DNA of 64,000 nucleotides, taken from NCBI GenBank assembly GCA_049513715.1, contig JBEKVV010000002.1, positions 1-64,000 of the forward strand, written 5' to 3'. This document shows positions 8,264 through 28,726 of the stretch, piece after piece. Each line of letters starts with the position of its first letter. Within the stretch, counting starts at the first letter, position 1. Under the pieces are notes generated by a model that did no database searches, was not told the DNA's origin, and was given only the letters and a program-made list of their open reading frames with translations. The stretch is from Candidatus Bathyarchaeia archaeon. GTDB lineage: Archaea; Thermoproteota; Bathyarchaeia; 40CM-2-53-6. Position numbers and translations under genes: made by a program.

Positions 8264-8264
8264 T

Positions 8265-10630: not shown

Positions 10631-10712
10631 TAGCACCTGCTCGAAGTTGCGCAAAGGCAGGAGAGGCCACATACACTGAATACGTCGCTGCTATGCATCG
10701 CAAACCGGTCAT

Positions 10713-12424: not shown

Positions 12425-12500
12425 CGGCAGTTCGACCGAACTACAGTAACTTGTTGAAAAGGGTTGATAGATTCTGTTGTTGAATGAGGAGCTCACTTGA

Positions 12501-13451
12501 ATGGAGTACTCCATACTTTTCGTTACGGACCTTCACGGCTCCGATGTATGTCTGAAGAAGGCGGTGAATGGAGCGAAGGCGTACAAGGCAAATGCTCTGA
12601 TAATTGGCGGGGACATAACTGGCAAGTTCGTTGTCCCAGTCATTAAGGGACCGAATGGGTTTACTGCGGAATTCCAAGGGACCAAGTACGCAGCCAAAAC
12701 AGAAGAAGAACTGCAGAGAGTCTACAAAATCATGGCAGACTCTGGACAATACCCCTACATGACCAGTGATGAGGAATTCGAAGACGCTAGAGTCAGCAAG
12801 GAAAAGACCGAGGCAATATTCACTAACCTTGTGATTGAGCGACTCAAAGAATGGTTGAAAATCATAGAGGAACGAATGAAGAACACTGGAATAGGCGTGT
12901 TCATAACGGGTGGAAATGATGACTTCTATACGATCTCCGAAATTCTCAGAAGCAGTGAAGCTGTCACTAACCCTGAAGACCGAGTCGTTGAGGTAGGGGG
13001 ACATGAAATGATCAGCTCAGGTTATAGCAACATGACTCCGTGGAAGTGCCCCCGAGATATACCCGAGGAGGAGCTTGCAAAGAAGCTCGAAGAGATGGCA
13101 GGCCAAGTGAAGGACCCTAAGAAATCCATCTTCAACATTCACGTCCCCCCATACGATACTCCAATCGACCTGGCCCCTGACCTCGATGCAACACTCAGAC
13201 CCAAGATGTCAGGAGCCGAAGGTGGGTTCAAGATGGTTCACGTTGGGAGCACCGCGGTGAGGGGAATCATAGAAAAGTACCAACCTCTGGTTGGCCTACA
13301 CGGCCACATACATGAATCCAGAGCGGCTGTTAAGATCGGCAAAACCACTTGCCTCAACCCTGGCAGCGAATATGGCGAAGGAATTCTCCGCGGTGTCCTT
13401 CTCAATCTATCCCCTGACAAAGTCGTCAACTATTCATTCTTCGCAGGGTAA
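12501..13451 (+). CDS. Calcineurin-like (Icc-related) metallophosphoesterase
   Basis: TDLHG, GGD, GGNDD, HVPP, HGHIHES, NPGSEY. Confidence 0.92.
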   Translation: MEYSILFVTDLHGSDVCLKKAVNGAKAYKANALIIGGDITGKFVVPVIKGPNGFTAEFQGTKYAAKTEEELQRVYKIMADSGQYPYMTSDEEFEDARVSKEKTEAIFTNLVIERLKEWLKIIEERMKNTGIGVFITGGNDDFYTISEILRSSEAVTNPEDRVVEVGGHEMISSGYSNMTPWKCPRDIPEEELAKKLEEMAGQVKDPKKSIFNIHVPPYDTPIDLAPDLDATLRPKMSGAEGGFKMVHVGSTAVRGIIEKYQPLVGLHGHIHESRAAVKIGKTTCLNPGSEYGEGILRGVLLNLSPDKVVNYSFFAG

Positions 13452-13461
13452 GTGACATCAT

Positions 13462-14277
13462 GTGAAAGCCGCAGACAACGCATTCGTGGGAGAGGCATTA
13501 CGAATAGTCGAAAGCGCAGAGAAACAAGGAATCAAACTCAGAATAATGGGAGCAATTGCGATTCGCCTCCATGCTACCCGTATGCTTGAACAGAGTCAGA
13601 CTCTGAAAAGAGATATTACGGACATAGATTTTGTTGGGTACAGCAAACAGAAAAGCAAAATCGAGGACCTGATAATACAAGCAGGATACGACGAACTCAG
13701 AGCCATGCTCACTCCAGGGCTCCTACTTAATCGAATGATCTTCATCAGCAAAGACCCAGGCAAACACATCGACGTCTTCCTCGATCAGCTGCAGATGTGC
13801 CACACGGTCGATTTCAAGGACTGCCTAGATCTCGACTACCCAACCATATCTTTAGCCCATCTTCTTCTTCAAAAGATGCAGATCGTGAGAATCAACGAGA
13901 AGGACATCAAAGATACGCTCGCGCTACTTCTCGAACATGAGATGGGGAAGAGTGACAAAGAGACGATAGACGTTGAACTAATCACTAAGACGCTATCGGA
14001 AGACTGGGGCTTCTACTACACCGTAACCACAAACCTAGGGAAAGTAAGAACATTCATGGACACATACAAGCTAACAGAAGAAGACAGAGCGGTGATCAAC
14101 AAGAAACTCGACACTTTGATCAGCGCAATAGAAAACCAACCGAAAAGTCTGCGATGGAAGTTGAGAGCGAAGGTTGGCACGAAACAGAAATGGTACAATG
14201 AAGTCGAGGAAGTGGAAAGAGCAACCCATCTGACGGAAAACGGCAACAACAACTCCGGTGACGTTCCAGCCAATTGA
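13462..14277 (+). CDS. Uncharacterised nucleotidyltransferase-fold protein
   Basis: IMGAIAIRLH..DITDIDFV..IDVFLD carboxylate triad followed by helical domain (LLLQKMQ..KDIKD..DWGFY). Confidence 0.75.
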   Translation: MKAADNAFVGEALRIVESAEKQGIKLRIMGAIAIRLHATRMLEQSQTLKRDITDIDFVGYSKQKSKIEDLIIQAGYDELRAMLTPGLLLNRMIFISKDPGKHIDVFLDQLQMCHTVDFKDCLDLDYPTISLAHLLLQKMQIVRINEKDIKDTLALLLEHEMGKSDKETIDVELITKTLSEDWGFYYTVTTNLGKVRTFMDTYKLTEEDRAVINKKLDTLISAIENQPKSLRWKLRAKVGTKQKWYNEVEEVERATHLTENGNNNSGDVPAN

Positions 14278-14912
14278 ATGACGAACCATCAGCTCGCAAC
14301 GACTTCACATTAGGCCCGAAACCGAATGTGCAAGATCTCCTAGCCCTGATCACGACGGCAGACGCGTACCGCAACTTCATTTTCGGTAACCTTGAAGAAT
14401 TTCACAAAGATATAACCGCCAAGAAATTCGGAACAGATATTTTGACTGCCTGGGATGAAACCTATCAGTCCCTAAAGCGACTCGAAGCTGCGGGAAGATC
14501 AATCCCGGGCCTAGAAACGATCTGGAAGATGCGGTCCACGTCCCTCGTAGGGGCGATGATGCTGGTAGTCCTAACTATGGTGTCCATCATGACGCGGTTG
14601 AATGTTTGGCTTTTCTATGGGTCCTTCTACGGAGCACTGATAATGCTGGCTGTTTCGGGTGCCTCAAGCTATCTCTCGAGTAGACGAATCAACGCTTACG
14701 TACGGAGACAAAGCGGGAGACATGGAGCCGACATGAAAACCATTAAGGCCTTTATTCAGAAGTTGTTGAATTCACTGTCGCGTTATTTTCACGTTACAAA
14801 GGCCAATGCTGCAAAGTATCCTCTTGACCTCTACAATGTTGACTACAGGCGAATACACATTATGAAAAGCCCGGGGTTCCGCAGAACATACGAAGTCATC
14901 ATCGAGACCTGA
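14274..14912 (+). CDS. Hypothetical protein with two transmembrane helices
   Basis: Two hydrophobic segments; overlaps the NTase stop by 4 nt. Confidence 0.7.
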   Translation: MNDEPSARNDFTLGPKPNVQDLLALITTADAYRNFIFGNLEEFHKDITAKKFGTDILTAWDETYQSLKRLEAAGRSIPGLETIWKMRSTSLVGAMMLVVLTMVSIMTRLNVWLFYGSFYGALIMLAVSGASSYLSSRRINAYVRRQSGRHGADMKTIKAFIQKLLNSLSRYFHVTKANAAKYPLDLYNVDYRRIHIMKSPGFRRTYEVIIET

Positions 14913-15049
14913 TTAGATACCTGGCAAACAGAGAGCTGAAGCGACTCCCTTTTCGCGCAGAATCAATTAGCTTCTAACAGGTTTTTCGTGGACTTGGCAT
15001 ATAGACGATTTTGGAAGTATATTCTTCAACTTAAGGAGCGAACTCTATA

Positions 15050-16705
15050 TTGGAAACTCTCAAATGCACATTGGGTCGCAAAACACAGATTCGTAGACCT
15101 TCCTTGGCAACGGACTCGAAGGTATTCGTTAGAACCGCTTCAGGACTTGTCCGAACCATTAGCCCGTGGGGAGCCTTGGGTATGGCATTCGTGATGCCAG
15201 GTATCCTGAACCCTGCTTACCTGGGTGAATGGGGCGCAGGTCTGTACCCGAACTCATACGAGCCTGCCTCCGTGGGCGCGCTTGTTGTGCTTCTCCCAGT
15301 CATGGCCGTGTTCTACCTGTTCTCGGTTGCGATGCCACGTTCCGGAGGAGACTACATCTACGTCTCCAGGACACTAACGCCTGTTCTTGGGCTTGTAACC
15401 AGCTGGACCTTCTCGGTGGTCTTTTGGAGTTGGGCAGGCTTTCAAGGCGTGGTCACTTTCATTTATGGTCCGGCGGTCGACTTCATCGCACGAGGCCAAA
15501 TGACCGGCGATCAAGGACTCATCAACTTGGGCCTTCTAATCTACAACAATCCGTGGGTCCTTTGGATTCTAGCGACGCTGCATACTCTGGTCATGGGGCT
15601 CATAGCGTGGAGGGGAACTAAGGCAAGCGTAATGACAATGTACGTTGTTTGGGCCGCCTCAACAATCGGACTCATCGCGATGGCCATATCATGGATGGGT
15701 ATGCCCTCGCTTGATTTCTTCAAGGCCAATATGCTCAGAATGACCGGTGTTGATTACAACTCGATAATTACGACTGCCCGACAAAATGGTTGGACTGGGG
15801 GATACTATGCCCTGCCCACTATCTACGCCGGAGTTACCTACGTCATGCTCAACACTCTTGGCAACCAGGGAGTAGCCACAGTCGCTGGCGAAGTTAAGGA
15901 AGTTAAGAAAGCCACCTTCTTTGCACTGTTCGGTTCACTTGGATTGATGGCCCTCTACTGGCTCCCTCAGTACCTCTTCCTATTCGAGATTGGAGGACGT
16001 GATTTCACTAGCGCATCCGCGTACCTCTTCCAGATCGGAAAGAACCCATTCATCATAGAACCCGTATGGACCTACATGACTGCGATTGCATCGAACAACC
16101 CACTCCTAACCACGATTTACACGTACACATACGCAATGGCTAGCTGGGCAATCGGTTTCGGTGGCCTATACTTCAGCACAAGGGCAGTCTTCGCTTGGGG
16201 ATTTGATAGGGTCTTTCCTGAGTTCGTGAACAAGGTCAACAAGAGAGGAGTCCCGGTGGGAGCCATAGCCGTGGCCACATTCGGTGCGTGGGTGTGGACT
16301 ACACTCAACGTGTGGTTCCCGCAGTACATTAGGCTCATCGGATACACGACCTGCGTCTGGGCAATAGCTTGGGTTATCTTGGGAATTGCCGCGATTGCGT
16401 TCCCTTACCGCAGAAAGGAAGTCTTCCAAAAGTCCCCCGACGTAGTTCGAAGAAAAGTGCTCGGGTTACCTGTCATCGTCCACATGGGCTGGATGACCGT
16501 AGTTGTCGGAGGATTTATCGCATATGCAACCTTCCTCCCCGCAATAACTGGAACAAATGTGTGGTATTCATTTACACCATTCTTGACAACGGTGCTCACG
16601 CTAATGCTCATACCCGTTGTGATATTCTACGGCTACTACCTCTACCGAACACGAGTCGGCAAAGTGAGAATGGACATACAATTCAAGGAAATTCCACCCG
16701 ACTGA
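15050..16705 (+). CDS. APC-family amino acid/amine permease (start may be TTG 15104)
   Basis: FVRTASGLVR, MPRSGGDYIYVSR, GEVK, FDRVFP, FKEIPPD; about 12-14 TM segments. Confidence 0.92.
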   Translation: METLKCTLGRKTQIRRPSLATDSKVFVRTASGLVRTISPWGALGMAFVMPGILNPAYLGEWGAGLYPNSYEPASVGALVVLLPVMAVFYLFSVAMPRSGGDYIYVSRTLTPVLGLVTSWTFSVVFWSWAGFQGVVTFIYGPAVDFIARGQMTGDQGLINLGLLIYNNPWVLWILATLHTLVMGLIAWRGTKASVMTMYVVWAASTIGLIAMAISWMGMPSLDFFKANMLRMTGVDYNSIITTARQNGWTGGYYALPTIYAGVTYVMLNTLGNQGVATVAGEVKEVKKATFFALFGSLGLMALYWLPQYLFLFEIGGRDFTSASAYLFQIGKNPFIIEPVWTYMTAIASNNPLLTTIYTYTYAMASWAIGFGGLYFSTRAVFAWGFDRVFPEFVNKVNKRGVPVGAIAVATFGAWVWTTLNVWFPQYIRLIGYTTCVWAIAWVILGIAAIAFPYRRKEVFQKSPDVVRRKVLGLPVIVHMGWMTVVVGGFIAYATFLPAITGTNVWYSFTPFLTTVLTLMLIPVVIFYGYYLYRTRVGKVRMDIQFKEIPPD

Positions 16706-16769
16706 GCTTATGGACGGAACTTTCCCTGAATTGTTCCCATACCTTTTCTTCACGCGCACCCGTGGATGA

Positions 16770-17579
16770 TTGGTCAGTGAGTATGCAGTGAAGAGTATGA
16801 ACGTCAAAGGCAAAGTAGCTCTCATAACCGGAGTTGCAGGACCTGCAGGGATTGGCTTCGCATCGGCCAAAAGACTGGGTCAGGAAGGAGCAATCCTTGC
16901 AATTGCCGATGTATCGAACGAGGTCGATGAACGAGCAAGAGAACTACGGGCACTTGGAGCCCAAGTCACACCTTTCAAGTTGGACATCACGAAACTGAGC
17001 GAGGTCACTGCGATGGTTGAGAGCTTGCTCAAGGAACGGGGAAGAATCGACATACTCGCAAACATAGCAGGTTTAGGACCGAGGGGAAAATCATTCAGCC
17101 TCGGCAAGCTTTTCGTTGACATGACAGAGGAAGAGTGGGACAACCAAATTGCAGTGAATCTGAAGACGACTTTCAACTGCATCAAAGCCGTTCTTCCAAC
17201 CATGATAAGGCAGAGGTACGGAAGAATCGTCAACATGTCCTCCGTAACCGGAACGAATGTATCCGACCCCGCGGCCGCAGCTTACTCAGCAGCCAAGGCA
17301 GCTATTTCCGGTTTAACGAAAGCCCTGGCGCTCGAAGTCACTGGATATGGAATAACAGTGAACGCCATTTGCCCAGGCTGGATAGACACAGGACGAGAAC
17401 TGGAAAGGAAAGCCGGACTTGCCAGCCCAATGAAACGTGCAGGAAAACCAGACGAAGTAGCCAACTTAGTACTGTTTCTGGCATCGGACGAATCATCGTA
17501 CATGAGCGGACACGAAATAGTCGTAGACGGCGCTAACACTCTGCAGGAATACAAGGGCGAAGGAGAACTCGTCTTCTAG
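16770..17579 (+). CDS. Short-chain dehydrogenase/reductase
   Basis: TGVAGPAGIG, NIAG, SS, YSAAK, NAICPG. Confidence 0.93.
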   Translation: MVSEYAVKSMNVKGKVALITGVAGPAGIGFASAKRLGQEGAILAIADVSNEVDERARELRALGAQVTPFKLDITKLSEVTAMVESLLKERGRIDILANIAGLGPRGKSFSLGKLFVDMTEEEWDNQIAVNLKTTFNCIKAVLPTMIRQRYGRIVNMSSVTGTNVSDPAAAAYSAAKAAISGLTKALALEVTGYGITVNAICPGWIDTGRELERKAGLASPMKRAGKPDEVANLVLFLASDESSYMSGHEIVVDGANTLQEYKGEGELVF

Positions 17580-17839
17580 TGTAGGCACGTTACAGTCGTT
17601 AACGCTGAGACTTCGAAGAGAGTATCGATAAGCAATTCCGACACAAGAAAGAGGAAAGGAGGTACTTCGCTGGTCAAACTCCCAATTCTTTATCGTCCAC
17701 GCACATCCTCAATCTCCAAGCCCAATCAATGCGTCAGGTCTGGTTCGCCTCACGACGCGTAACAACCAGTCAAATGCACCAAACTCAGAGATGCCATGAT
17801 GCCCTTTCGCGAAATGCAGATCACTCACGACTAGAATGG

Positions 17840-18661
17840 TCAATATAGACAGTCACAGGCACTGATGCAAAGGGGTAATTTTCTCCCCACTTTTGCCACA
17901 CGGAGTGTTACAACAGCTAAGCATAGTGTGATTCCCGCGATGATCGCTGGGGTTTGCCATTCAGGGATGCTTGTGAATTGTTGGCTTTCAACTAGAAGAG
18001 ACCACGATGTCACAAGGGTAGATCTGTCGGCTCCGGGGACTGTCAATTGGAATGGTTGCCGGTTGGCGAGGGGTATGGTAGCTGGGTCCGTCGAAGTCAT
18101 GCCCACGTAGACGACATTCCCGTCGGCGCCGTAGAACGTGCCCACGACTTTCGTGTAATCGCTTTCTGTGTTGCCGTTGTTCTGCACAAAGCCAGTGAGC
18201 ACTATTGAGCCGTAGATGTCTCTCGTGGCATTAACCGCGTAAGCGTTCAACGCGAAGGTCACGGGCTGGGACTCGTGGAATTCCAGGCTGAGCGTGTAGC
18301 TACTTACAGCCCCTGAATTAGCCGCATTATCTTCCATCACATTAAAGCCAGCAGCCTCGCCTGGTGACAGGTTGTTGAGGAAAGTGTAGGCTGCAGGAAA
18401 GTCGATTATGCTTCCGTTTTGGGCTCGCAGCGTCGCCGAAATTCTGATCTGGGTGAGCCATACGTTGCCCGTGTTCAAGACTTCACCAACGACGTGCCAA
18501 TCGCCATTCAGGTCAATGTACGTGGTTTCCTTCTGGAGTTGAGCGTTGATTGTAGCAAACGCTGGACGAAAGAGCCAAGGAGCGCTAATCACGAAAAGAG
18601 CAACAATGAACAAAACGGTGGTTTTCTTCAATTCTCGATCCAGCCTTCTCCTACCAGCCAT
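17840..18661 (-). CDS. Secreted protein with two FxLYD-like domains and PEF-CTERM-like anchor
   Basis: Signal peptide; repeats VVGEVLNTG and LTGFVQNNG..VVGTFYGADG; IPEW + TM + basic tail. Confidence 0.75.
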   Translation of the reverse strand: MAGRRRLDRELKKTTVLFIVALFVISAPWLFRPAFATINAQLQKETTYIDLNGDWHVVGEVLNTGNVWLTQIRISATLRAQNGSIIDFPAAYTFLNNLSPGEAAGFNVMEDNAANSGAVSSYTLSLEFHESQPVTFALNAYAVNATRDIYGSIVLTGFVQNNGNTESDYTKVVGTFYGADGNVVYVGMTSTDPATIPLANRQPFQLTVPGADRSTLVTSWSLLVESQQFTSIPEWQTPAIIAGITLCLAVVTLRVAKVGRKLPLCISACDCLY

Positions 18662-18761
18662 TAGGCTTCATCTTGAATCTTGCGCCTCTCAGGAGTTGTC
18701 TGCATGGAAACCTGCAAATGTAAATATGCTGAACCGTTTCCAAACAGTATGGGAATTTGCA

Positions 18762-19085
18762 TTGGAAAATCTCGGCAAGGTTCTGAAGCTCAAAGACGCT
18801 GTGTCCTACCAAGAGGGAAGTATTGTAAGCCGCACCTTGATCGATAAGGAAAGTGGCACGGTCACACTTTTCGCGTTTGATGAGGGCCAAGCCCTGAGCG
18901 AGCACACGGCCCCGTTCGATGCATTGGTCATAGTTGTTGACGGCGAGGTGGACATCACCATCTCAGGCAATGTGTCCCACCTGAAAGAAGGGGAGATGAC
19001 GATCCTGCCAGCAAAGAAGCCGCACGCACTCAAAGCGGTGACGCGGTTCAAGATGGCCTTGGTTATGATACGAAGCCAAAAGTAG
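18762..19085 (+). CDS. Cupin domain protein
   Basis: SIVSRTLI..VTLFAFDEGQALSEHTAPFDA..PHALKA; TTG at 18762 more plausible than 18546. Confidence 0.9.
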   Translation: MENLGKVLKLKDAVSYQEGSIVSRTLIDKESGTVTLFAFDEGQALSEHTAPFDALVIVVDGEVDITISGNVSHLKEGEMTILPAKKPHALKAVTRFKMALVMIRSQK

Positions 19086-19884: not shown

Positions 19885-20247
19885 ATCAGAAACCTAAAAC
19901 GAGCACGACGGAAGCATTCTTCCTTGGTGCAAGGGACTTCAAACAACTTGAATGGCCGGGCATACCCACCCTTCAATTGGTGGAATCACCCTACTACTAC
20001 CTTTCATTCTCAGCGAGGAGGTAGTTGGTCGCCTGCGACCAAGCAGTTGGTCAGGAGCTGCCTGACGCAATCCGAAATAGCGGCATTTCACCCGTGAATA
20101 GGCTACATTTCAACGCATAATGGCAGCCAACGGGTAGTTCACCCTTTTCCCCAGAATGACGGGTATTGTCTTCACTGTGAAGCATTCTCCATTGGTGCTC
20201 ATGGTAAACGTTTTCTGCTGGATTGCATGAATTCATTTTGGTTTGAC

Positions 20248-20295
20248 ATGTCTTGGAAATACACTGACGAGTACTACAAGAATAAAGACGCCTAA
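20248..20295 (+). pseudogene. Displaced 5' end of the methyltransferase at 27887..28726 (attL side)
   Basis: ATG TCT TGG AAA TAC ACT GAC GAG TAC TAC AAG AAT = MSWKYTDEYYKN, joining in frame to YKNYTRQTWDEC at 27902 through shared TACAAGAA. Confidence 0.8.
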
Positions 20296-20324
20296 ATCTA
20301 CTTACCGTTATACTGAGAGTTCGA

Positions 20325-20888
20325 TTACACGTCGAAGCCTTGTTCTCGCATTTCTTCCACCGTTGGAATCTTCACTATCATACGCGGTTCCCCGTCTTTC
20401 GTTTTGTACGCCATAACCCAGAGGGCATTGAGATCGACATGTCTGCCGCCTGGTAAGGTGTGGCGTTCTGGAATGTTGACTTCTTTGAAGAATGGTTTCC
20501 CGTTGGCATCGAAGTCAATTGCGGGTGTTCCAAACCAGAAGGCTTTCTTGTGTACTCTTTGAACTTCATTCCATACTCGACGGAAATCTTTTCGCTTCTG
20601 AGCCTCGACATCGTTCTTAGAGACTTCGAGGCCGCGAGAAGTCTGTAAGAGGACACGTCCTAGTGCCTTGATGTGGTACTTCTTTTCTACATGGTCAACG
20701 GCTCCGTAGTCTTTCAACGGATTCATGTTTACGCTGAACCATCGCTCGGATATTTTCGCGGCGGACCTGATTTCCTTCCAGCTTGAGCCCTCTTCATTTT
20801 TGTCTAGGTGTTCAAGGATTTTGATTTGATATTCATTTGGCTTGAAGTTGGAAATCGTCTTCTTTTCTTTCATCTTCATTTGTGGCAC
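20325..20888 (-). CDS. Winged-helix transcriptional regulator (repressor-like)
   Basis: QIKILEHL..SSWKEIRSAAKISERWFSVNMNPL..YHIKALGR; divergent from the main element operon. Confidence 0.7.
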   Translation of the reverse strand: MPQMKMKEKKTISNFKPNEYQIKILEHLDKNEEGSSWKEIRSAAKISERWFSVNMNPLKDYGAVDHVEKKYHIKALGRVLLQTSRGLEVSKNDVEAQKRKDFRRVWNEVQRVHKKAFWFGTPAIDFDANGKPFFKEVNIPERHTLPGGRHVDLNALWVMAYKTKDGEPRMIVKIPTVEEMREQGFDV

Positions 20889-20890
20889 TT

Positions 20891-20940
20891 CAGTACAGTT
20901 GCTTTACTACAGTACAGTTCTTTACATTACCATTATAAAC
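20891..20940. promoter_or_regulatory. Divergent promoter with tandem operator-like repeats
   Basis: CAGTACAGTT(G)CTTTAC at 20891 and 20910, then TTATAAAC box at 20933. Confidence 0.55.
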
Positions 20941-20972
20941 GCTTTGGAAGTGTATTCAATGCTTGGATAGCC

Positions 20973-21086
20973 ATGGAACAATGGAAATACATTCGCATTA
21001 CTGAGGAAGTGCACGACAAATTAACTGGCTTAGGGAAGAAAGGCGAATCCTACGACCAAATTCTAAGGCGGGTTCTGCCTGAATGA
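20973..21086 (+). CDS. Small ribbon-helix-helix-like DNA-binding protein
   Basis: MEQWKYIRITEEVHDKLTGLGKKGESYDQILRRVL, typical archaeal K.GESYD.ILRR family. Confidence 0.75.
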   Translation: MEQWKYIRITEEVHDKLTGLGKKGESYDQILRRVLPE

Positions 21087-21178
21087 ACATCGCGTATAGT
21101 TGCCCGTTCTGCCCCTGGCGTAAGTCCTCGACAACGATTCCGGAAATTCGGGCGCACCTGGAGGAAAACCACCGTTGA
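21083..21178 (+). CDS. 31-aa C2H2 zinc-finger protein (absent from ORF track)
   Basis: MNIAYSCPFCPWRKSSTTIPEIRAHLEENHR*; ATGA and TTGA overlaps with both neighbours. Confidence 0.7.
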   Translation: MNIAYSCPFCPWRKSSTTIPEIRAHLEENHR

Positions 21179-21510
21179 GTAAATGCCCAAGTTGCGGAGC
21201 GATTCTCGAATTAGTAGTCGGCACCGATTACACGAAAGCGCAAGCCATCTTAGGCACTAAGGCTTCGGGAAGCGATCTCACCAATGAACAGCTAGCCGTT
21301 CTGAAGTGGAAACAATCGCAGAAGAGGGAGGCGCTTTCCACCCTACTCGTCACAACGGAGCTGCTTAACATCCCCATAGCCAAACTGCTCTATGAACGTT
21401 TGAAGTCATCCTCGAATTTGAGTTGGAAACTAGGAGAAATAACGTACAAACTCAGCAGAACCGACGCCGCGGAATTTCTACAACGCTGGTCACCAATTGC
21501 TGCTCGCTGA
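21175..21510 (+). CDS. Hypothetical protein with N-terminal CPSCG knuckle
   Basis: Translationally coupled in the element operon. Confidence 0.65.
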   Translation: MSKCPSCGAILELVVGTDYTKAQAILGTKASGSDLTNEQLAVLKWKQSQKREALSTLLVTTELLNIPIAKLLYERLKSSSNLSWKLGEITYKLSRTDAAEFLQRWSPIAAR

Positions 21511-21724
21511 ATGCGTGACCTGCCGAGATAATCCTGGCGAACGGGTTTGCCGCCACGGGCTTGGAATGTGGGCTGTCGTTAGACATGACGACATCACGGG
21601 GTTATGGTTCGACCTACACGGCCACATCCACACAAATCATAAGATGGCGATTCTTCCGGCCACGAAATACCAAGTCATCATTCTGCCTTCGCATAAGTCA
21701 CTCGTGCCAACGGAGATTACTTGA
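21497..21724 (+). CDS. Small Cys/His-rich hypothetical protein
   Basis: CVTC..C.H..HGHIH; overlaps both neighbours. Confidence 0.5.
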   Translation: MLLAECVTCRDNPGERVCRHGLGMWAVVRHDDITGLWFDLHGHIHTNHKMAILPATKYQVIILPSHKSLVPTEIT

Positions 21725-22944
21725 TGCTTGAAAATGAAATCGTTGAGTTCTCTCCCGAAAGCCGAGACAGCGCCCTGAAACTACTCAGAGAACCAAACCT
21801 ATGGAATACGATGGACCAGGAATTAGAGATCGCAATCAAAGAAGACTTGGAAGGACGGCAAGGAACCTTTGCGATTGAACTCACCGCGTTTCTACCTAAG
21901 CCCGCTCATCTAATGTTGCTGGGTTCAAGCGCCATCGGCAAAACTTGGCTAGCGAAGCAGACAAGCGCATTCATTCCCGTCGAATATGTGCAAACCCTAG
22001 GATCCTCTACGCAGAGGGCTTGGTTCTACTGCGGCGAAGCCATTTACAAACCACATCCCATAATTCCCATGAAACAAGTAATTGACTATTACAAGGTTGA
22101 TTGGCGAAACAAAGTTGTCATAATTCTTGACAACGTGAGGCCGGAAACAATCAAGGACCTCAAACCGATAATGAGCCATGACGGACCAGTCATCGAACTC
22201 CAAACCACCGAACGAACGCAAGGCGGATCATTGAAAACCCGACGCGTGAAAACGCTTGGCTGCCCGGCTTTCGTGAACTGTTCGACTTGGCTTCAATGGG
22301 GCGCCGAGCTAACCAGCCGCCATTACTACTTAAGCCCGAAGGATAGTCCGCAGAAGTATGAGGCCGCCGCCAACTATCTCGACCAGGAATTTACGACGGG
22401 GCAAGCGCCAACAAGTAAGATAATTCCAATAATTCATGATGCAATACGTTACTTAGTGGGTCAAAACCTCAAAACGGTAATTCACCCCAATGTGATCGGG
22501 AAACTGAGAGAACGGTTCACGTGGAAATCAGGCCGCGACGTCCGCGATTATGAACGGGCCGCAACAATCACACAGGCCGTCGCGTGGTTCCATGCCCTAC
22601 AAAGAGAGCGCACAGAGCAGGGCGACGTAATAGCGGATGAACGAGATCTAGCGATTGTGAACGGCTTCATAGAGCCCCTACTGCGAACAAGCCGGTACGG
22701 AACAAGCAACGAAGTGTTAGACTACTATGAACGCGTGCTGAAGCCCCTAGCCGCAAACGGAGATGTTCACCACGCAGACGCCGCCACAAAATATCTCCAA
22801 GTCTACGATCGGCCCATAAAACGCGACGAAATTTACCAATACAACACAGTCCTCGAAGGCTTAGGCCGAATCGAACTCATCCAAGACCCGCAAGACAAAC
22901 GACGCCGCCTCATACGAATAACGGACACGCAAACACAACTATGA
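21721..22944 (+). CDS. P-loop ATPase, putative replicative helicase/primase-associated protein with C-terminal wHTH
   Basis: GSSAIGKT Walker A, VIILDN Walker B, ELTSRHY and GRDVRD arginine motifs, QDPQDKRRRLIRI wing. Confidence 0.7.
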   Translation: MMLENEIVEFSPESRDSALKLLREPNLWNTMDQELEIAIKEDLEGRQGTFAIELTAFLPKPAHLMLLGSSAIGKTWLAKQTSAFIPVEYVQTLGSSTQRAWFYCGEAIYKPHPIIPMKQVIDYYKVDWRNKVVIILDNVRPETIKDLKPIMSHDGPVIELQTTERTQGGSLKTRRVKTLGCPAFVNCSTWLQWGAELTSRHYYLSPKDSPQKYEAAANYLDQEFTTGQAPTSKIIPIIHDAIRYLVGQNLKTVIHPNVIGKLRERFTWKSGRDVRDYERAATITQAVAWFHALQRERTEQGDVIADERDLAIVNGFIEPLLRTSRYGTSNEVLDYYERVLKPLAANGDVHHADAATKYLQVYDRPIKRDEIYQYNTVLEGLGRIELIQDPQDKRRRLIRITDTQTQL

Positions 22945-23171
22945 GGAATGGAAGTGTGCCAATGAAACAGGAAATAGATGCTAATAGAAAGTGTGTCATT
23001 GAAGAATCAATCATAACACCACACAATCACCTAGCATCTACTTTTCACAAATACTCTCCCGGGAAGTGTGTTATTGTGAGAGCTGGTTCTTGTTGGGGTT
23101 TGGTACACCGTTCGAGTCCAATTTATTGGATGGAGTGTTACTATGATAATATTCGTTTGGTTGTGGTGTAA

Positions 23172-23519
23172 ATGAGCGAAGAACAACGGAAAACAGGCGG
23201 GCAACCGGACAACTTGAACGCCATGAAAGGCATAGGCGTCGAGCTCAAGAACTATGATCTGAACCAGGTTTCCGACTGCTTCCGCCTATTGCAGGTCATA
23301 ACGGAAGCCGTTCTTCAAGGACGCATAGGCGCAAGGGCCGCGGGCGCAGCAAACAACGCAATACGAATCATCCTCAGCTATCACAGCGATATTGCCCAAG
23401 TCGCAGAGAACAAGCGATTAATCGAGGAATCTAAGCGTCGAATCAAGGAGCTTGAGGCCAAACTGGACGAATTACAGCAACCTGTTTCACGCGTGAAACA
23501 AGAGGCGAATCAGCCTTGA
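23172..23519 (+). CDS. Putative terminase small subunit
   Basis: GGQPDNLNAMK resembles the GGQPGNxNA N-terminus of TerS-like proteins; C-terminal coiled coil; overlaps TerL start. Confidence 0.6.
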   Translation: MSEEQRKTGGQPDNLNAMKGIGVELKNYDLNQVSDCFRLLQVITEAVLQGRIGARAAGAANNAIRIILSYHSDIAQVAENKRLIEESKRRIKELEAKLDELQQPVSRVKQEANQP

Positions 23520-24973
23520 GCCTAGCTCTACAGGAACAAGAGGCCCATGAGATCCGCTTAGCCATAGACCACGTTCTATCTAGGCTTCCCACGGAGCGCA
23601 TAGACTTCAAGAAACTAGCGAAGGGTTGGCCTGCCTTCCAATCTGGGTTAATGGTCTATTCAGGCTTGAAGAAAGGCGAACCATTCAACCCCTTCCCCTA
23701 CCAAACTAGGGCGTTTGATTCCTTCTTTCTAAATGAGAAGACCGCCCTGCAATGGTCGAGGCAGACGGGTAAAACCGTGTGTACGGGCGCGTATGTTGTT
23801 TACCTTGCGAAGCAGGTTCCTGGGTTAACTGCGCTGGTTGCTTCATTCAGGCATGAGCAAAGCGTTCTATTGGTGGATGCTGTTTATGGCTGGTCAAAGT
23901 GGCACCGAGATCCAAGCTATGAAGCGAACCTTCCACGTCGACGGGCTCAAACCCACGTCTATTTCGAGAACGGTTCTAAGTTGTTCGCGGTTCCTCACGG
24001 TGAGGCCTCGATGGGGCGAACCTTGGATTTGCTAATCTTTGACGAAAGCCAAGAGATTCCGGACGAAGACCTACGGGCCAGTTCGCCAACTACCGCGGCA
24101 AGTGGTGGGCGTAGAATCTGGATTGGGACCGCGTTTGCGCCGGAAGGGTTCTGGTACGAGATCACGCAGGCCCCGCGGAAGCACGGTTTCAATTTGATTC
24201 GGGTTCCATATCAAGATGCTCTAGCGCCTAATGGTCCGGTGATTTCTGAGGCGGTTGAAGCGGACCGTTTGCTTTTGACGCCTGCTCAATGGAAAATGAA
24301 CTACGAGCTTACAGCCATTGCGGGCGTTAACAGGTTCTTTGAACGCGACCGCATCCTGGCCTGTCACAGTGTTGGACCGTTAGAGCCGATTCCTAAAGAC
24401 GCGCTATGGCTTGCAGGGCACGACCACGCAATAACACACGATGAATCTGTTTTGATGGCCGGTCCTTTGGTTAATGGTGTTTGGCATCAGAACCTTGTTG
24501 TGAGTTTTCCGCGAGGTATGCCTTTGAATCGGCAAGCCGAACGCGCCCTAACCGTTCTACCGGCAAACTGCACACTACACATAGATTCAACCGGCGAGGC
24601 GGGCGTTCAAATGCTAAGCGAATACGCTAGGCTTTCCGTGAACGTTCGCGCTTTCGACTACGGCAGGGCGGACGCGAAACCGCACCTAATGAGCCAGCTA
24701 TGGCAATGGATCCAAAACGGCAAGGTCCGAATCTATGACCAAGCCACAATAGACCAGCTCATAGCTTTCCGGTTCCATCTTTCAAGCACCGGGCATGAGA
24801 TTTACGGAGATGCAAGCCACGCGGACGACCGGGTGAACGCCCTTGCCTTGGCGATTGAAGGGGCCGCGCAAACACGCGAAGACAAGGGCGAATTTTCAGC
24901 CCTTTTCGTTGGCGGCGTGAATGATGGATCGGACCTAGCGGGCGCGATTGAGCGATGGAATGAGGTGATGTAA
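23516..24973 (+). CDS. terL: Terminase large subunit
   Basis: PFPYQ adenine motif, SRQTGKT Walker A, LLIFDESQ Walker B, IGT coupling motif, RNase H acids GHD..D, IDSTG, HADDRVNALALA. Confidence 0.9.
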   Translation: MSLALQEQEAHEIRLAIDHVLSRLPTERIDFKKLAKGWPAFQSGLMVYSGLKKGEPFNPFPYQTRAFDSFFLNEKTALQWSRQTGKTVCTGAYVVYLAKQVPGLTALVASFRHEQSVLLVDAVYGWSKWHRDPSYEANLPRRRAQTHVYFENGSKLFAVPHGEASMGRTLDLLIFDESQEIPDEDLRASSPTTAASGGRRIWIGTAFAPEGFWYEITQAPRKHGFNLIRVPYQDALAPNGPVISEAVEADRLLLTPAQWKMNYELTAIAGVNRFFERDRILACHSVGPLEPIPKDALWLAGHDHAITHDESVLMAGPLVNGVWHQNLVVSFPRGMPLNRQAERALTVLPANCTLHIDSTGEAGVQMLSEYARLSVNVRAFDYGRADAKPHLMSQLWQWIQNGKVRIYDQATIDQLIAFRFHLSSTGHEIYGDASHADDRVNALALAIEGAAQTREDKGEFSALFVGGVNDGSDLAGAIERWNEVM

Positions 24974-24976
24974 GCC

Positions 24977-25150
24977 TTGAAGAAACTGTTAGAGGACGTT
25001 CTGCCGCATCCTTGCCCTGAATGTGGTGGTCGCTTAATCCTCACGAAATGGGTTCCCGAAACCGAGCTGGAAAAGAAACCGGTGATTCAAGTTCAATGTG
25101 ACCGCTGCCGCAAATTCCTAGCAGGCCAAGAGGAAGCGTTCTCAAAATGA
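24977..25150 (+). CDS. 57-aa zinc-ribbon protein (absent from ORF track)
   Basis: MKKLLEDVLPHPCPECGG..VQCDRCRKF; GAGGTGA upstream; ATGA overlap with next ORF. Confidence 0.7.
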   Translation: MKKLLEDVLPHPCPECGGRLILTKWVPETELEKKPVIQVQCDRCRKFLAGQEEAFSK

Positions 25151-25500
25151 CAATCTCCACCGCTGTTTACGTGATGCAAGTTCTACAGAAAATGCGTAGC
25201 TTAGATGAACAGATGTCGCAATTGCGCAAGCACCTTCTTGAAGTGAACGCGGCGGAATGTCTTACGCCTCATTGTGGAGAACCGGCCCGGTGGCCTAGTC
25301 GATGGTGTCGTAACTGCCGGATCGAGCGTACGCGGATGCTTGGAAGGGAACGCGCAAGACAGTTCAGAGTCAACAAACGTAACGCGCGTAACGCACCCCT
25401 TACCCCTTCTATTGGGACGAATAGCAATGCACAACCCATTCAAGAAACAACCAATCTCGCCCAACCCTGCACCATTCGAGACCAAGGAAACCCTAGTTAG
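25147..25500 (+). CDS. Hypothetical Cys-containing basic protein
   Basis: CLTPHC..WCRNCR followed by Arg-rich helix. Confidence 0.55.
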   Translation: MTISTAVYVMQVLQKMRSLDEQMSQLRKHLLEVNAAECLTPHCGEPARWPSRWCRNCRIERTRMLGRERARQFRVNKRNARNAPLTPSIGTNSNAQPIQETTNLAQPCTIRDQGNPS

Positions 25501-25771
25501 ATTTCTTGGCTCACTAGCTGGGAAACTTGTAACCGGCGAAGTTTCCGTTCCACAGGCTGAAGCAACCATTCGCATTATCGGCAAATTCTACGAAGCATTG
25601 ACATTGAAAGATTTCGCGCTCGCCATCATCACGCCTCCCGAACCTGAACCAGAACCGAAATCTAAAGCCTACAACGTGACAACGGACGAACAATCAGCCA
25701 AAATGGACGCCCAAGCGAAAGCCGGTAATGAACTTCTCAATCGTTTCAGCGAACGCGGAGTAATTCAGTGA
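25427..25771 (+). CDS. Hypothetical protein, weakly similar to the TerS-like ORF
   Basis: LVRFLGSLAGKLVTGEVSVPQAEATIRII versus FRLLQVITEAVLQGRIGARAAGAANNAIRII; ATG at 25427. Confidence 0.5.
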   Translation: MHNPFKKQPISPNPAPFETKETLVRFLGSLAGKLVTGEVSVPQAEATIRIIGKFYEALTLKDFALAIITPPEPEPEPKSKAYNVTTDEQSAKMDAQAKAGNELLNRFSERGVIQ

Positions 25772-25775
25772 AGGG

Positions 25776-26060
25776 GTGAGAACACAAATGAATGAAGAAG
25801 AACGCAAACTATCCGAAGCCGAATTTGAAAAAGGCCTAGGCGACATGGTTAAGACGCTAAAGATGCTGAGTCGCGTTTCTCCGGCTTGGAAGAAAAAGGT
25901 AACAAGGAAAATCGCCGAAGCATTCAGCGAAGATGAAGGCGAATCAGAAAGCGAGGCTAAGGCAGCGCGACCGGTGAGAACCGAAGACGGAATGACAAAG
26001 GCGTTCAACGCAGAAATAAAACCGGCTTTGCAAAAGCGTTTCGGAGTCACGCACCAGTGA
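25776..26060 (+). CDS. Hypothetical helical protein
   Basis: Co-directional with the operon, SD-like GGGGTGA before the internal ATG. Confidence 0.6.
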   Translation: MRTQMNEEERKLSEAEFEKGLGDMVKTLKMLSRVSPAWKKKVTRKIAEAFSEDEGESESEAKAARPVRTEDGMTKAFNAEIKPALQKRFGVTHQ

Positions 26061-26089
26061 CCGGAAATCTGGTTGGAGGTGAAATGTGA

Positions 26090-26641
26090 ATGAGTGCAAT
26101 TAGCATCCCGCAAGAACCCTTCGACATGAAGAGCATAGGCTTCGATCCCAGCCAAGAAATTCCATTGGAAAACATCAACCCTGGTAGGCTTTCAGCTACC
26201 GCGAAAGTCGAATTGACCGTCCTACACGAAGACGGTTCGATGTTACGCGAACTTTTCATCGAAAAGGTTGGCCGAAGTCAAGAGGAAATAGCCAAGGACA
26301 TCAAAAAGGCCGAAGCTCAAGGACTTTACCAAAACAGCGAAGATTGGCAACGAATCAGAATGCTTGAACGACGCGAAAAACCGAAAGCGTACATTTTCCG
26401 ATACAAAGGCCTACTCAAAGAACTCAACGACTACATCAACGGTGTGTCGGTGGATACTGGCCAGGGCATCAAAACAGTCAGCGAAGGACACCCACGGACT
26501 TGGATCATAGGACGAAATGATTCATTCGGAAACTTAGACATTGAACAAAACTACGACAAAATTCTCAAGTACCACAACGATAGCGGCCGATTCAGCGAAA
26601 TCGTTGAAACCTCCTGGGATTTCGTGAAGAAGCAACGTTAA
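26090..26641 (+). CDS. Hypothetical protein (183 aa)
   Basis: Strong GGAGGTGA SD upstream; no recognised motif. Confidence 0.7.
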   Translation: MSAISIPQEPFDMKSIGFDPSQEIPLENINPGRLSATAKVELTVLHEDGSMLRELFIEKVGRSQEEIAKDIKKAEAQGLYQNSEDWQRIRMLERREKPKAYIFRYKGLLKELNDYINGVSVDTGQGIKTVSEGHPRTWIIGRNDSFGNLDIEQNYDKILKYHNDSGRFSEIVETSWDFVKKQR

Positions 26642-26720
26642 GGTGACTGGCGATGACGGCCCGCTTTTTTGTTAGGTTTACCAGCTGGGCCCAGCCTTCA
26701 CATTTTCGAGGTGAAATCAA

Positions 26721-26816
26721 ATGGTGAATGAATTTACATGCGGCGATTGCGGCCAGAAAGGTTCTTTGAACAAGGGGCTTGAGGAAGCAATCAAGCTCTG
26801 GCTCAAAGAGGCTTGA
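26721..26816 (+). CDS. 31-aa ORF, possibly a chimeric remnant
   Basis: GAGGTGA SD; MVNEFTCGDCGQKGSLNKGLEEAIKLWLKEA*, half a zinc knuckle plus an RHH-like tail. Confidence 0.35.
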   Translation: MVNEFTCGDCGQKGSLNKGLEEAIKLWLKEA

Positions 26817-26824
26817 GGGAAGGG

Positions 26825-27868
26825 CTAGTTCTCTGAAACCTTTATGCCCTTCACGGCCTCAACGAACTTCTTGAACCCTTCCGGGTCTTTCTGCATCGCG
26901 TTCTGCATAGCCACCCACAGATCCGTCTCGGGAACAACAACCGTCCCAGCGTAGACCTTCCTAAGCTCCGACCACATCCACGGCTCATCTCGATAGCATT
27001 TCTCGTAACCGCGCTGGTCGAGGATATGCCCTATTGCGAACTCTCCGACTTCATAAGGAACCTTGCTGAGCGTGCATCTTGTCTTGAAGCAGTCGCGCAT
27101 TTCGTGGACCGAGATATGGCCTTGAGTTGGTGGAATTGGTGCACGTTTCAAAGCGGTGTGAAAAGCTGAGCCCAGATATTGAACCATTAGGTTGTAGTGC
27201 TCAAAGCTGAAGGGGTGTCCTTTCTCGGTGCTGAACGGTAAAGTCACACCGGATGCCACGATCTCTTTTAGGAGTGTTACTGGAATCAGGGAAAAGTAGG
27301 GTTGTGGGTTCGTCTTGCGGTCCTGGAAGTTGAACCTGAAATATTCTTGGCTCGGGTTGCTGGCAAGATAGGCTTTCACGCGTTCCCAGGTCTCGGGTGA
27401 GTTGAATTTCAGAAGTTCACTTATGCCCCAGCCGCAATGAAGCATGAGTTTCAGCATGACGTTGTAGGGTTTCGAGGCGGAATTACAGACCGCTTGAGCC
27501 TCTTCCCAGCTTAAGCTGCCTGCCTGCCTTGTGCTCTTGGGATGCTTCAGGCGGTCCGCGGGTGGATAAATCCCGTGGAAGCGAACCCAGTTCTTCATCG
27601 CCATTAGGGCCAAGTGTTTGCCGACTGGGGTTAAGCCGTTCGAGTTTTTGGCGTGTGTCCAGAAGGCGTTAACGTCCTGCTTCGCTTGGCTCAAAGCCTC
27701 TTGAGGCGTTAGGGCCATGCCGCTGAGTAGTCTTCGCAAATAGTGGCGGTAGGATTTCACCGCGTGTTTGCTTAGTTCTTGATTTTGGATCTTGCTTTCA
27801 ATCCACTGGTCGATGAGGGGGGATTCTTTCGCCCATGATTGGTCGCTCAAGGTTCTTACCTGCACCAT
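26825..27868 (-). CDS. Tyrosine recombinase/integrase
   Basis: SAM-like N-domain (VKSYRHYLRRL), HCGWGISELL box I, RKT, HEMRD, AIGH and GYEK box II motifs. Confidence 0.88.
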   Translation of the reverse strand: MVQVRTLSDQSWAKESPLIDQWIESKIQNQELSKHAVKSYRHYLRRLLSGMALTPQEALSQAKQDVNAFWTHAKNSNGLTPVGKHLALMAMKNWVRFHGIYPPADRLKHPKSTRQAGSLSWEEAQAVCNSASKPYNVMLKLMLHCGWGISELLKFNSPETWERVKAYLASNPSQEYFRFNFQDRKTNPQPYFSLIPVTLLKEIVASGVTLPFSTEKGHPFSFEHYNLMVQYLGSAFHTALKRAPIPPTQGHISVHEMRDCFKTRCTLSKVPYEVGEFAIGHILDQRGYEKCYRDEPWMWSELRKVYAGTVVVPETDLWVAMQNAMQKDPEGFKKFVEAVKGIKVSEN

Positions 27869-27886
27869 CTACGGTATAACTTACTT

Positions 27887-28726
27887 ATGAATGTACGCTT
27901 TTACAAGAACTACACTCGGCAGACATGGGACGAATGCGCAGAAAAGTATGTGCCCTTACAGGGCCAGCTTGTCCCGTTTCACAGAATCCTTCTGGATAAC
28001 ATAAAACCACGACCGGCTGAGCGAGTACTTGACGTTTGCACTGGTCCAGGCGAGCCAGCTATGACCATCGCCGCAATGGTTGCACCAAACGGCCAAGTCG
28101 TAGGAATCGATCTATCCGCCAACATGACGGAAATCGCGACGAAAACCGCTGCAAAACGCCAGCTCCAAAACATTCAATTCCTCACGATGGATGCCGAAAA
28201 AATCGAATTGCCGCCGGCAAGCTTCGATCTCGCGGTATCGTGCTTCGGATTTCAAATCGTAACTGAGCCTGAGGTCGCTGCCCGGGAAATCCTTCGCGTC
28301 CTGAAACCAAATGGGCGTGCAGGCTTCACAGTTTGGAGTACGGGAGACAGAGCCACCGCCATAGATGTCCTGATTGGTCCCATGCTTGAACACGCGACGC
28401 CCGATGAGAACGGCTACTTACCCACACCATACGAGCTCGGGGGACCGGGCGAATTGGTCGAGATGCTGCAAAAGGTAGGGTTCGAGAAAACCAAAGAGGT
28501 ACGAACGCCTGGCGTTTGGACTGCCCATACCGCCGAGGAATACCTGACAATGATACTTGAGGGGACACCGCTCGGGCATTCCTTAAGCGAAGAGGACCCT
28601 GATGTCCAAAAGCTAATTGTGAAGAAGGCTCGTGAGAACATCGAACGTTATGAAACCGCCCAGGGCGTCAGTATTCCAACTGAATGCGTAGTCGTCCTCG
28701 CATCCAAGAGCACAAGCACCTACTAA
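27887..28726 (+). CDS. Class I SAM-dependent methyltransferase (integration target, N-terminus supplied by element)
   Basis: VLDVCTGPGEP, GIDLS, MDAE, SFDLAVS, LKPNGR; ATG 27887 lies inside the element. Confidence 0.9.
   Translation: MNVRFYKNYTRQTWDECAEKYVPLQGQLVPFHRILLDNIKPRPAERVLDVCTGPGEPAMTIAAMVAPNGQVVGIDLSANMTEIATKTAAKRQLQNIQFLTMDAEKIELPPASFDLAVSCFGFQIVTEPEVAAREILRVLKPNGRAGFTVWSTGDRATAIDVLIGPMLEHATPDENGYLPTPYELGGPGELVEMLQKVGFEKTKEVRTPGVWTAHTAEEYLTMILEGTPLGHSLSEEDPDVQKLIVKKARENIERYETAQGVSIPTECVVVLASKSTSTY

Follow-up and report, generated by a model that had tools for sequence, protein, structure and literature searches.

In a 64,000-nucleotide window (the whole stretch of DNA analysed, C2:1-64000) from the genome of a peat-dwelling Bathyarchaeia archaeon (11 contigs totalling 2.79 Mb; completeness 99.4%), we identified a complete, recently integrated mobile element with exact ends. 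This insert of 7,627 bp (positions 20283-27909) carries a large terminase subunit (TerL), a replication helicase and a tyrosine integrase. No portal or capsid family was recognised among its 14 open reading frames (ORFs) with Pfam, PHROGs and NCBIfam, which leaves TerL as its sole Caudoviricetes hallmark, short of the set of HK97 capsid, portal and TerL that marks a provirus. The best available mechanism, which we put forward tentatively and with slightly less than an even chance of being right, is that of a helper-dependent satellite-like element. A preliminary description, made from the sequence, had proposed a self-replicating satellite that fills the capsid of a helper virus. The complete element, its own replication protein, its TerL and the lack of a capsid were borne out, and the ORFs listed between 20.3 and 27.9 kb were all in place; the helper, the excised form and a presence in virus-derived contigs were not found.

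The element sits in the 5′ end of a gene coding for an S-adenosylmethionine (SAM) methyltransferase (Methyltransf_25 in Pfam, E 2.3e-22). Its ends are fixed because all nine non-self orthologues from the same genus run uninterrupted across the junction (the methyltransferase was searched in 23 same-genus genomes, 10 of which matched, including the host). The N-termini of these nine orthologues read M[STA]WKYTD[ED]YYK[NK]Y[TA]R[EQ]TW, that is, the left fragment joined directly to the right gene. The left flank (20249-20282) encodes, from its ATG, MSWKYTDEYYKN, followed by KDA and a stop codon; the right flank reads MNVRF-YKN-YTRQTWDEC, with the methyltransferase start at the ATG at 27887. The motif GGnAAAcGTTTTCT upstream is common to the left flank of the window and the same-genus orthologues (n = 9). 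The element inserted through site-specific recombination, with the crossover within TACAAGAA, at codons 10-12 of the methyltransferase, and its right end restores the methyltransferase with its own start codon, so that the gene stays open. The preliminary description had defined the ends by a direct repeat. Its coordinates stand, in one register, but the repeat is weak evidence when taken alone: TACAAGAA is only 8 bp long (20275-20282 and 27902-27909), an 8-mer shared between two end regions is close to chance level, and a repeat search of the window at a 12-nt minimum gave no longer terminal repeat. A tRNA as the insertion target was rejected, as the 64-kb window contains no tRNA gene, and base composition does not set the element apart (GC 0.45-0.54 within it against 0.50-0.53 in the bins on either side). 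With an integrase and attachment (att) sites, no capsid genes and no conjugation-annotated family among the Pfam and PHROGs matches of its ORFs, the element fits the definition of a cryptic integrated element, in the sense given in the available part of Krupovic et al. 2019 (PMC6563490). Separately, a 20-nt direct repeat (18/20 identical; 19911-19930 and 20179-20198) brackets 268 bp of non-coding DNA just upstream of the methyltransferase promoter and might have been left behind by a small insertion of older date.

TerL matches phrog_2 (E 4e-20) and phrog_7579 (E 1.8e-15), and its only Pfam match, Terminase_6N (E 0.031), is under the cut-off. With tblastn, 230 phage records were matched, all below 60% identity, those with the best coverage being the terminase of Meiothermus phage MMP17 and Methanobacterium virus PhiF1. 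A profile built from nine relatives aligned the C-terminal domain with the nuclease domain of G20c/P74-26 (5m1f, 5tge; E 3.5e-4), and this match covers VDSTGE and HADDRVNALALA. The motifs SRQTGKT and LLIFDES, assigned by inspection to Walker A and Walker B, are invariant in the nine relatives, as are D303, D357, D437 and D438, the nuclease acidic residues recognised in the same way. With both the ATPase and the nuclease accounted for, TerL is a genuine Caudoviricetes-type large terminase, and this reading of the motifs agrees with the intact motifs claimed for it earlier. The ratio of non-synonymous to synonymous substitution rates (dN/dS) is 0.05-0.20 in all 16 computable pairs, 5 further pairs being saturated in dS, which indicates that TerL is under purifying selection and selectively maintained.

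The element also has relatives. A metagenome scan gave one identical contig and seven related ones, with TerL at 69-78% identity, and among 5.8 billion proteins searched there were eight further TerL clusters at 71-80%, the next standing at 29%. Close TerL relatives are carried by longer contigs as well, of 359 kb (P0185), 31.9 kb (P0004), 10.5 kb (P0009), 9.3 kb (P0006) and 7.4 kb (P0002), and relatives of the MCM-like protein (P0012 and P0013) by contigs of 17-19 kb. Only TerL and the small protein encoded just upstream of it are conserved across the sister contigs, and the TerLs of three of them (L037, L040 and L041) are 86-90% identical among themselves. The neighbouring replication protein is a distant MCM-like homologue in L041 (hhalign probability 99.5%), accompanied by a 22%-identical integrase, a 566-aa ATPase with no detected kinship in L037, and, in L040 and L042, a P4/D5-type primase-helicase whose gene immediately precedes those of the small partner and TerL (L043 was assigned by its likeness to L042 and was unscanned). 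The terminase cassette is thus conserved while the replication backbone varies, with three unrelated replication proteins beside it. The preliminary description had allowed for homologous elements with a portal or capsid block behind terL. The sister contigs found here share the cassette, and in the four that reach 0.5-1.0 kb beyond terL no portal follows it; the first ORF there is complete and codes for 166, 82, 87 or 98 aa, with an apparent divergent regulatory region behind it in L042 and L043. Structural families were also absent from the sister contigs by PHROGs, for the proteins scanned, and by Pfam in L037, L040, L041 and L042. Two of these contigs additionally encode treble-clef zinc-finger proteins (PF23477, E 2e-15 and 4e-13; L037:526-813 and L041:2888-3130) upstream of different replication genes.

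One could regard such elements as decayed remnants of head-tailed proviruses that have lost their structural genes. TerL is otherwise a virus hallmark, and there is a published precedent for this interpretation: NitKor-E1, an integrated element of Ca. Nitrosopumilus koreensis AR1 with an integrase, TerS, TerL and no other viral gene, is called enigmatic and a likely relic in the available part of PMC6563490, which describes terminase as previously unseen in non-viral elements. A relic is nevertheless difficult to reconcile with the exact att sites, the apparently intact integrase and the restored target gene, with a compact layout free of pseudogene-like gaps, with a TerL dN/dS of 0.05-0.20 across elements, with the lack of a portal after terL in the window and four sister contigs alike, or with three unrelated replication modules joined to one cassette. 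Because the insertion is precisely bounded and apparently recent, the family is under purifying selection and the replication modules are interchangeable, we consider the relic reading unlikely and give it only a small share of the probability.

The partner of TerL is less clear. The 115-aa protein is encoded directly upstream of terL in the window, and a homologue takes this place in all seven non-identical sister contigs; in five of these it is 51-60% identical (56-65% by tblastn), and in L042 and L043 it takes a divergent form with 19-20% identity. Its dN/dS is 0.20-0.35. The preliminary description had called it TerS-like, a label that comes from its position and for which the searches gave no support: no family was found in Pfam, PHROGs, NCBIfam or PADLOC, a PDB sequence search returned coiled-coil noise only, the AlphaFold2 (AF2) model (predicted local distance difference test, pLDDT, 66.5) had no Foldseek match at E <= 0.001, and the Atlas neighbours were unnamed small virus and archaeal proteins with scores <0.9. 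Prediction of a complex between TerL and the 115-aa protein scored 0.00, which is no answer and evidence neither way.

The replication-type ATPase first described is supported by a model of the 407-aa protein (AF2, pLDDT 85.5, predicted template modelling score 0.86). The top 50 Foldseek matches are all MCM chains (best E 6.9e-12, probability 1.0, query TM-score, TMq, of ~0.5), and no sequence family was found in Pfam, PHROGs or NCBIfam. With 407 aa against 590-720 aa for the matched MCM chains (target TM-score, TMt, 0.30-0.37), the protein seems to lack the N-terminal OB-fold/zinc domain of cellular MCM. On the strength of the model we call it an MCM-like helicase with a C-terminal winged helix, the replication protein of the element; it has 15 homologues at 48-78% identity and relatives in 38 of 401 Bathyarchaeia genomes. 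The repeat-rich gap reported after this gene is indeed present, as three of the four matches to GAAGTGTGyyAwTG in the window fall within 125 bp beside the helicase gene, and we infer a candidate replication origin there. Next comes a block of ~55 nt that occurs once in the host genome and has an alignable counterpart ahead of the terminase genes of L037, L040 and L041 (four elements in total). Its palindrome CCAATTTATTGG retains pairing across elements despite changes on both sides, and the block is a candidate packaging (pac) site or a control site of the terminase operon. A likeness to a tRNA T-arm was considered and dropped, as no tRNA or Rfam match was obtained for the four sister loci, nor for L078, the locus spanning the conserved block of the window. 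The gene order of the element, namely, an integrase, divergent regulators, a replicase, origin-like repeats and packaging genes with no capsid, resembles that of phage-inducible chromosomal islands (PICIs), as had been pointed out, with the role of the repeats as an origin being the inferred part.

Under the satellite reading, the element would excise and replicate from the iteron region by means of its MCM-like helicase. The terminase would then recognise the conserved block and package the DNA of the element, probably as headful multimers, into the procapsids of a head-tailed virus of the same host, so that the satellite would bring the packaging motor and borrow the shell, the portal and the tail. 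Such helpers exist in principle, as suggested by a Bathyarchaeia head-tailed provirus with portal, capsid and tail matches (L067) and by the head-tailed Bathyarchaeia viruses described in a preprint (10.1101/2023.08.24.554615), in the available text of which the word “satellite” does not occur. In a more specific form, which is more doubtful than not, these would be the first satellites known for head-tailed viruses of archaea, bringing a whole packaging motor of their own lineage (TerL, its small partner and a cognate cis site) while taking only the procapsid, portal and tail, and the cassette would be a portable “packaging ticket” passed between unrelated plasmid-like backbones.

Several results weigh against the satellite reading. 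Packaging of multimers must be assumed because the 7.6-kb unit is far below the known capacities of tailed-virus capsids. The portal, capsid and encapsulin families PF04860, PF05065, PF05133, phrog_9232 and PF04454 have no match in the host genome, so that the co-occurring provirus or helper that had been suggested did not turn up there (phrog_544 has no match either, but as it has none in any control genome it is uninformative). An exhaustive profile search for TerL gave 1,164 matches at E <= 1e-3, only 8 of which reach E <= 1e-30, and with the nearest outgroup at 28% identity TerL belongs to an isolated lineage. No TerL falls between 30% and 69% identity, so that we can point to no virus lineage whose motor or portal would match; in the species genomes, the TerL search gave only two bacterial TerLs, at 26-28% identity. 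IMG/VR gave no close relative, and no presence in virus-derived contigs was found. The stretch is present in 24 peat or wetland runs, all of them possibly the source of the DNA, with no RNA run among the holders listed. In contigs from four of these 24 runs, the integrated form was found in one piece, and neither a circular junction nor a same-strain empty site was seen, a weak negative as contigs drop rare forms. Low-depth contigs joining 20283 to the continuation of the gene were considered as traces of excision and rejected: they diverge upstream of 20248 and match a related species (G182, L054), and the joined form is the native empty site of another organism.

The remaining points against packaging concern the use of the same proteins elsewhere. 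Relatives of the 115-aa protein (found by profile in 7 of 401 genomes, and at three places in the host genome) occur in at least four loci without a TerL-like ORF (L116, L131, L132 and L134; BLASTP E <= 1e-3), which weakens the TerS label. One is an element on C1 of the host with a 115-aa homologue (hhalign probability 96.4%); the others are at C2:118 kb, G281:C154 and G182:C15. These TerL-less elements would either be TerS-only, as in Staphylococcus aureus pathogenicity islands (SaPIs), or the 115-aa protein would be a general small DNA-binding factor of the element pool. TerL-like genes at <=32% identity were found in 153 of the 401 sampled genomes. We took 20 loci from large contigs, 19 of which held TerL by BLASTP; a portal and a capsid are present in only one (L067), 9 of the 19 pair the gene with a following ABC/SMC-like ATPase of ~480 aa (phrog_293, phrog_11143), and in 6 the gene in the TerS position codes for a D5-like helix-turn-helix (HTH) protein. 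The host genome itself has two other TerL-like genes, on C4 and C11, both in non-proviral contexts. Non-packaging uses of the TerL fold in this class have to be taken seriously.

It is conceivable, if rather unlikely, that the terminase serves the element in another way, either in the resolution of concatemers or in interference with viruses, and that the element spreads by another route or only vertically. In the antiviral variant, it could compete for or cut the DNA of an infecting virus, or occupy procapsids. The lack of a helper or capsid match in the host genome, the 115-aa family members without TerL and the prevalence of TerL-like genes outside proviruses, 9 of 19 of them next to an ATPase weakly resembling defence ATPases, all favour this possibility. 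However, the window TerL clade lies outside the ABC-linked group in a quick tree, where it groups with four outgroup representatives and apart from the other Bathyarchaeia TerL-like genes (SH-aLRT support only, careful search unfinished, long-branch warnings); TerL matches no PADLOC model; and its ATPase and nuclease motifs are both retained, as a packaging enzyme requires. To our knowledge, no non-packaging role of a full-length TerL has been described.

A virus of very small size is the other possibility, in which the shell and portal would be made of unrecognised small proteins encoded after terL; we regard this as improbable. The five post-TerL ORFs (57-183 aa) have no family and gave no usable model, and the available part of PMC13669383 reports HK97-type genomes of less than 11.6 kb whose gene sets are unusual. 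However, none of the five matches a structural family, they are not conserved between sister elements, unlike what is expected for a capsid gene, and the largest unassigned ORF has 183 aa. The known portals and capsid proteins of the HK97 fold far exceed this length. The same lack of conservation and of family matches leaves these ORFs with no role that we could show, although they had been offered as candidates for capsid resizing or helper interference. The 183-aa ORF has one relative outside its own cluster (P0028, 79% identity) and no usable structural neighbour (Atlas model pLDDT 0.38). The 165-aa ORF was considered as a paralogue of the 115-aa protein and rejected (hhalign probability 3% against the 115-aa profile).

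Features of the element and of its integration site (positions in the 64-kb window)
Feature	Position	Strand	Basis or remark
Displaced native 5′ end of the methyltransferase	20249..20296	+	MSWKYTDEYYKN then KDA-stop; native promoter region just upstream
attL core TACAAGAA	20275..20282	.	Sequence and orthologue comparison
187-aa winged-helix regulator, divergent from the remaining genes	20325..20888	-	phrog_2440 transcriptional regulator, E 8.6e-6; weak winged helix-turn-helix (wHTH) matches in PADLOC
~37-aa ribbon-helix-helix (RHH)-like protein (listed ORF 20808-21086)	20973..21086	+	84 bp from the divergent wHTH gene
111-aa ORF, N-terminal CPSC motif	21175..21510	+	No family in Pfam, PHROGs, NCBIfam, PADLOC
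75-aa Cys/His-rich ORF	21497..21724	+	No Pfam or PHROGs family
407-aa MCM-like AAA+ helicase with C-terminal winged helix, replication protein of the element	21721..22944	+	AF2 model and Foldseek
Iteron-like repeats GAAGTGTGyyAwTG, three copies (22952, 22989, 23064), and an imperfect inverted repeat	22945..23076	.	Repeat search
Conserved non-coding block ending in 12-bp palindrome CCAATTTATTGG	23077..23129	.	Alignment with L037, L040, L041
115-aa small helical protein, TerS position	23172..23519	+	Stop overlaps the terL start
485-aa large terminase, ATPase and RNase H-like nuclease	23516..24973	+	PHROGs, PDB profile, phage tblastn
57-aa zinc-ribbon protein	24977..25150	+	Weak zinc-ribbon/Lar-like matches only
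117-aa ORF, CxxxHC..CxxC motif	25147..25500	+	No family in Pfam, PHROGs, PADLOC, NCBIfam
165-aa ORF, overlaps the 117-aa ORF in another frame	25274..25771	+	Possible real start ATG 25397; no family
94-aa highly charged ORF	25776..26060	+	Chance-level Pfam matches only
183-aa ORF, largest unassigned gene	26090..26641	+	No family in Pfam, PHROGs, PADLOC, NCBIfam
347-aa tyrosine integrase	26825..27868	-	NCBIfam XerA, E 3.2e-10, under cut-off; HxxR and H..Y motifs present
Replacement methyltransferase start (MNVRF), element-supplied	27887..27909	+	In-frame fusion at attR core TACAAGAA (27902-27909)

The genes of the element form a plus-strand run from 20.8 to 26.6 kb, flanked by the 187-aa gene and, at the right end, by the 347-aa gene, both on the minus strand. 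The integrase and the divergent wHTH regulator assigned earlier were matched by the XerA and phrog_2440 profiles, respectively, and the regulator has no Pfam family. When aligned to P. abyssi XerA (4a8e), the integrase has a Gly at the position of the box-I arginine (AGLRVSEL in XerA versus CGWGISEL), and its HEMR and GH..RGY motifs are present. The integrase of L041 (L041:173-1273; 22% identical, E 3e-15) also has a Gly at box I, with an Arg one position later. The host genome holds five further matches to the integrase of the element, at 26-58% identity, and the exact insertion shows that some enzyme worked. The RHH assignment stands as RHH-like, a weak label, the matches to DUF7557 (E 1.7e-4) and to the VapB-antitoxin RHH (E 0.021) both being under the curated cut-offs. 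The small zinc fingers of the preliminary description are in part as claimed, the exception being the 111-aa ORF, which has two cysteines only.

Further loci were noted in the host genome (G000) and elsewhere in the class. The C1 element (G000:C1:374500-385000, L116 ~8500-18900) is a ~10-kb integrated element with a 57%-identical integrase, an Orc1/Cdc6-like ATPase, a 616-aa protein with a weak Ig-like match, and no TerL. A third small element candidate without TerL lies outside the window (G000:C2:114800-119000, L131 ~6870-10720), with a 391-aa integrase-like gene (23-26% identity to the window integrase) and, at C2:118411-118713, another relative of the 115-aa protein. In the C4 locus (G000:C4:145900-150500, L004 15900-19600), the gene for a 447-aa TerL (Terminase_6N E 4.4e-17, Terminase_6C E 7.5e-6) comes after an RHH gene and a 126-aa ORF, with an HtrA-type protease gene on one side and cellular genes on the other. 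The locus has no integrase, portal or capsid, and in the tree this TerL is sister to the copy of a same-genus genome (L076). On C11, a 304-aa TerL-like form consists of the ATPase only (L006 1332-2246). Such ORFs of ~290-305 aa, with no nuclease domain, recur in Bathyarchaeia, where many class-wide matches are 260-320 aa long. The same C11 locus has a 717-aa ORF (L006:6269-8422) with weak sub-domain Pfam matches to the ribosome-inactivating protein PF00161 (E 1.1e-7), DUF7671 and DUF7081. The pair of a TerL-like protein (~480 aa) and an ABC/SMC-like ATPase (~480 aa) is found at L058, L061, L063, L066, L068, L069, L070, L074 and L075 (genomes G346, G367, G324, G229, G160, G157, G326 and G214), often preceded by a small ORF of 111-176 aa and with no portal or capsid nearby. 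Two of the pair ATPases were scanned against PADLOC and gave weak matches to mad3, mad8, PtuA and LmuB. This pair may be an undescribed non-packaging use of terminase, possibly in defence.

From a broader perspective, terminase is usually treated as a hallmark of complete tailed viruses, and the one published archaeal element that has a terminase but lacks a capsid was discounted as probably a relic. If the element of the window is packaged by a helper, then satellites of tailed viruses exist in Archaea, virus-detection pipelines in which TerL suffices to call a provirus report too many, and a hijack that brings the motor only would add a new form of virus parasitism, a strategy undescribed for bacterial satellites. 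If it is not packaged, a full TerL has a second, so far unknown job.

The statement of the preliminary description that no archaeal satellite with this gene set was known needs to be qualified. Our topical literature searches listed no paper describing archaeal terminase-only satellites, but NitKor-E1 is a precedent from 2019, read as a probable relic in the available text of PMC6563490, the only paper returned for it by a full-text search. On that source, NitKor-E1 is likewise archaeal, with TerS and TerL side by side, a tyrosine integrase, typical mobile-element genes and no capsid, portal or tail. It belongs to another phylum and carries VapBC and a restriction endonuclease, whereas the window element carries an MCM-like helicase, and the likeness described here is one of gene content. 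NitKor-E1 is moreover a single case, whereas here there is a family under purifying selection in which replication modules have been exchanged, together with a conserved cis block and precisely defined att sites.

The other archaeal elements proposed to use helper virions, pSSVx, pSSVi, SRCEs and NMV2S, are also small and plasmid-derived (10.1101/2025.02.15.638363, 10.64898/2026.08.12.739948; available parts of both). According to the available text of Zhou et al. 2025 (10.1101/2025.02.15.638363), pSSVx and pSSVi were the only archaeal satellites known before that study, which adds satellites of spindle-shaped viruses; unlike the window element, pSSVx, pSSVi and SRCEs parasitise such viruses and have no TerL. 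NMV2S, proposed for an Asgard siphovirus in the accessible part of a 2026 preprint (10.64898/2026.08.12.739948), is tied to a head-tailed virus and differs in being without a terminase.

Similar to PICIs and SaPIs, the window element has a terminal integrase, divergent regulators, an iteron-like region behind the replicase gene, and packaging genes, and the classical forms have no capsid genes. In classical PICIs, TerS or Ppi works with the TerL of the helper, whereas the window element carries a full TerL. It is also archaeal where they have bacterial hosts, and smaller (7.6 kb). Capsid-forming PICIs (cf-PICIs) are satellites with their own TerS and TerL. They additionally encode their capsid, their portal and the connectors between head and tail, so that only the tail is borrowed, and no gene for a capsid, portal or connector was found in the window element. 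Marine virion encapsidated integrative mobile elements (VEIMEs) have small-subunit terminase homologues, the large subunit being referred to helper phages in the available part of the paper that describes them. The mirror image, small genomes with a capsid and scaffold and without a terminase or portal, is reported in the part available of PMC13669383 (Nat Commun 2026).

Finally, the 11.2-kb plasmid pSR11 of Salinibacter ruber M8 (NC_014026.1, L135) is a small replicon with the order RHH, P4-type primase (a primase type also seen in L040 and L042), unknown ORF and terminase ATPase (phrog_7579, E 4e-96), and PHROGs recognised no portal or capsid in it. Unlike the window element, it is a free bacterial plasmid with ParA, and its terminase is 27% identical over 45% of the query, from a gene that looks split. 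The plasmid also holds phrog_27743 and a 628-aa coiled-coil protein. It may be that pSR11 is a bacterial counterpart of terminase-bearing small replicons such as the one described here.

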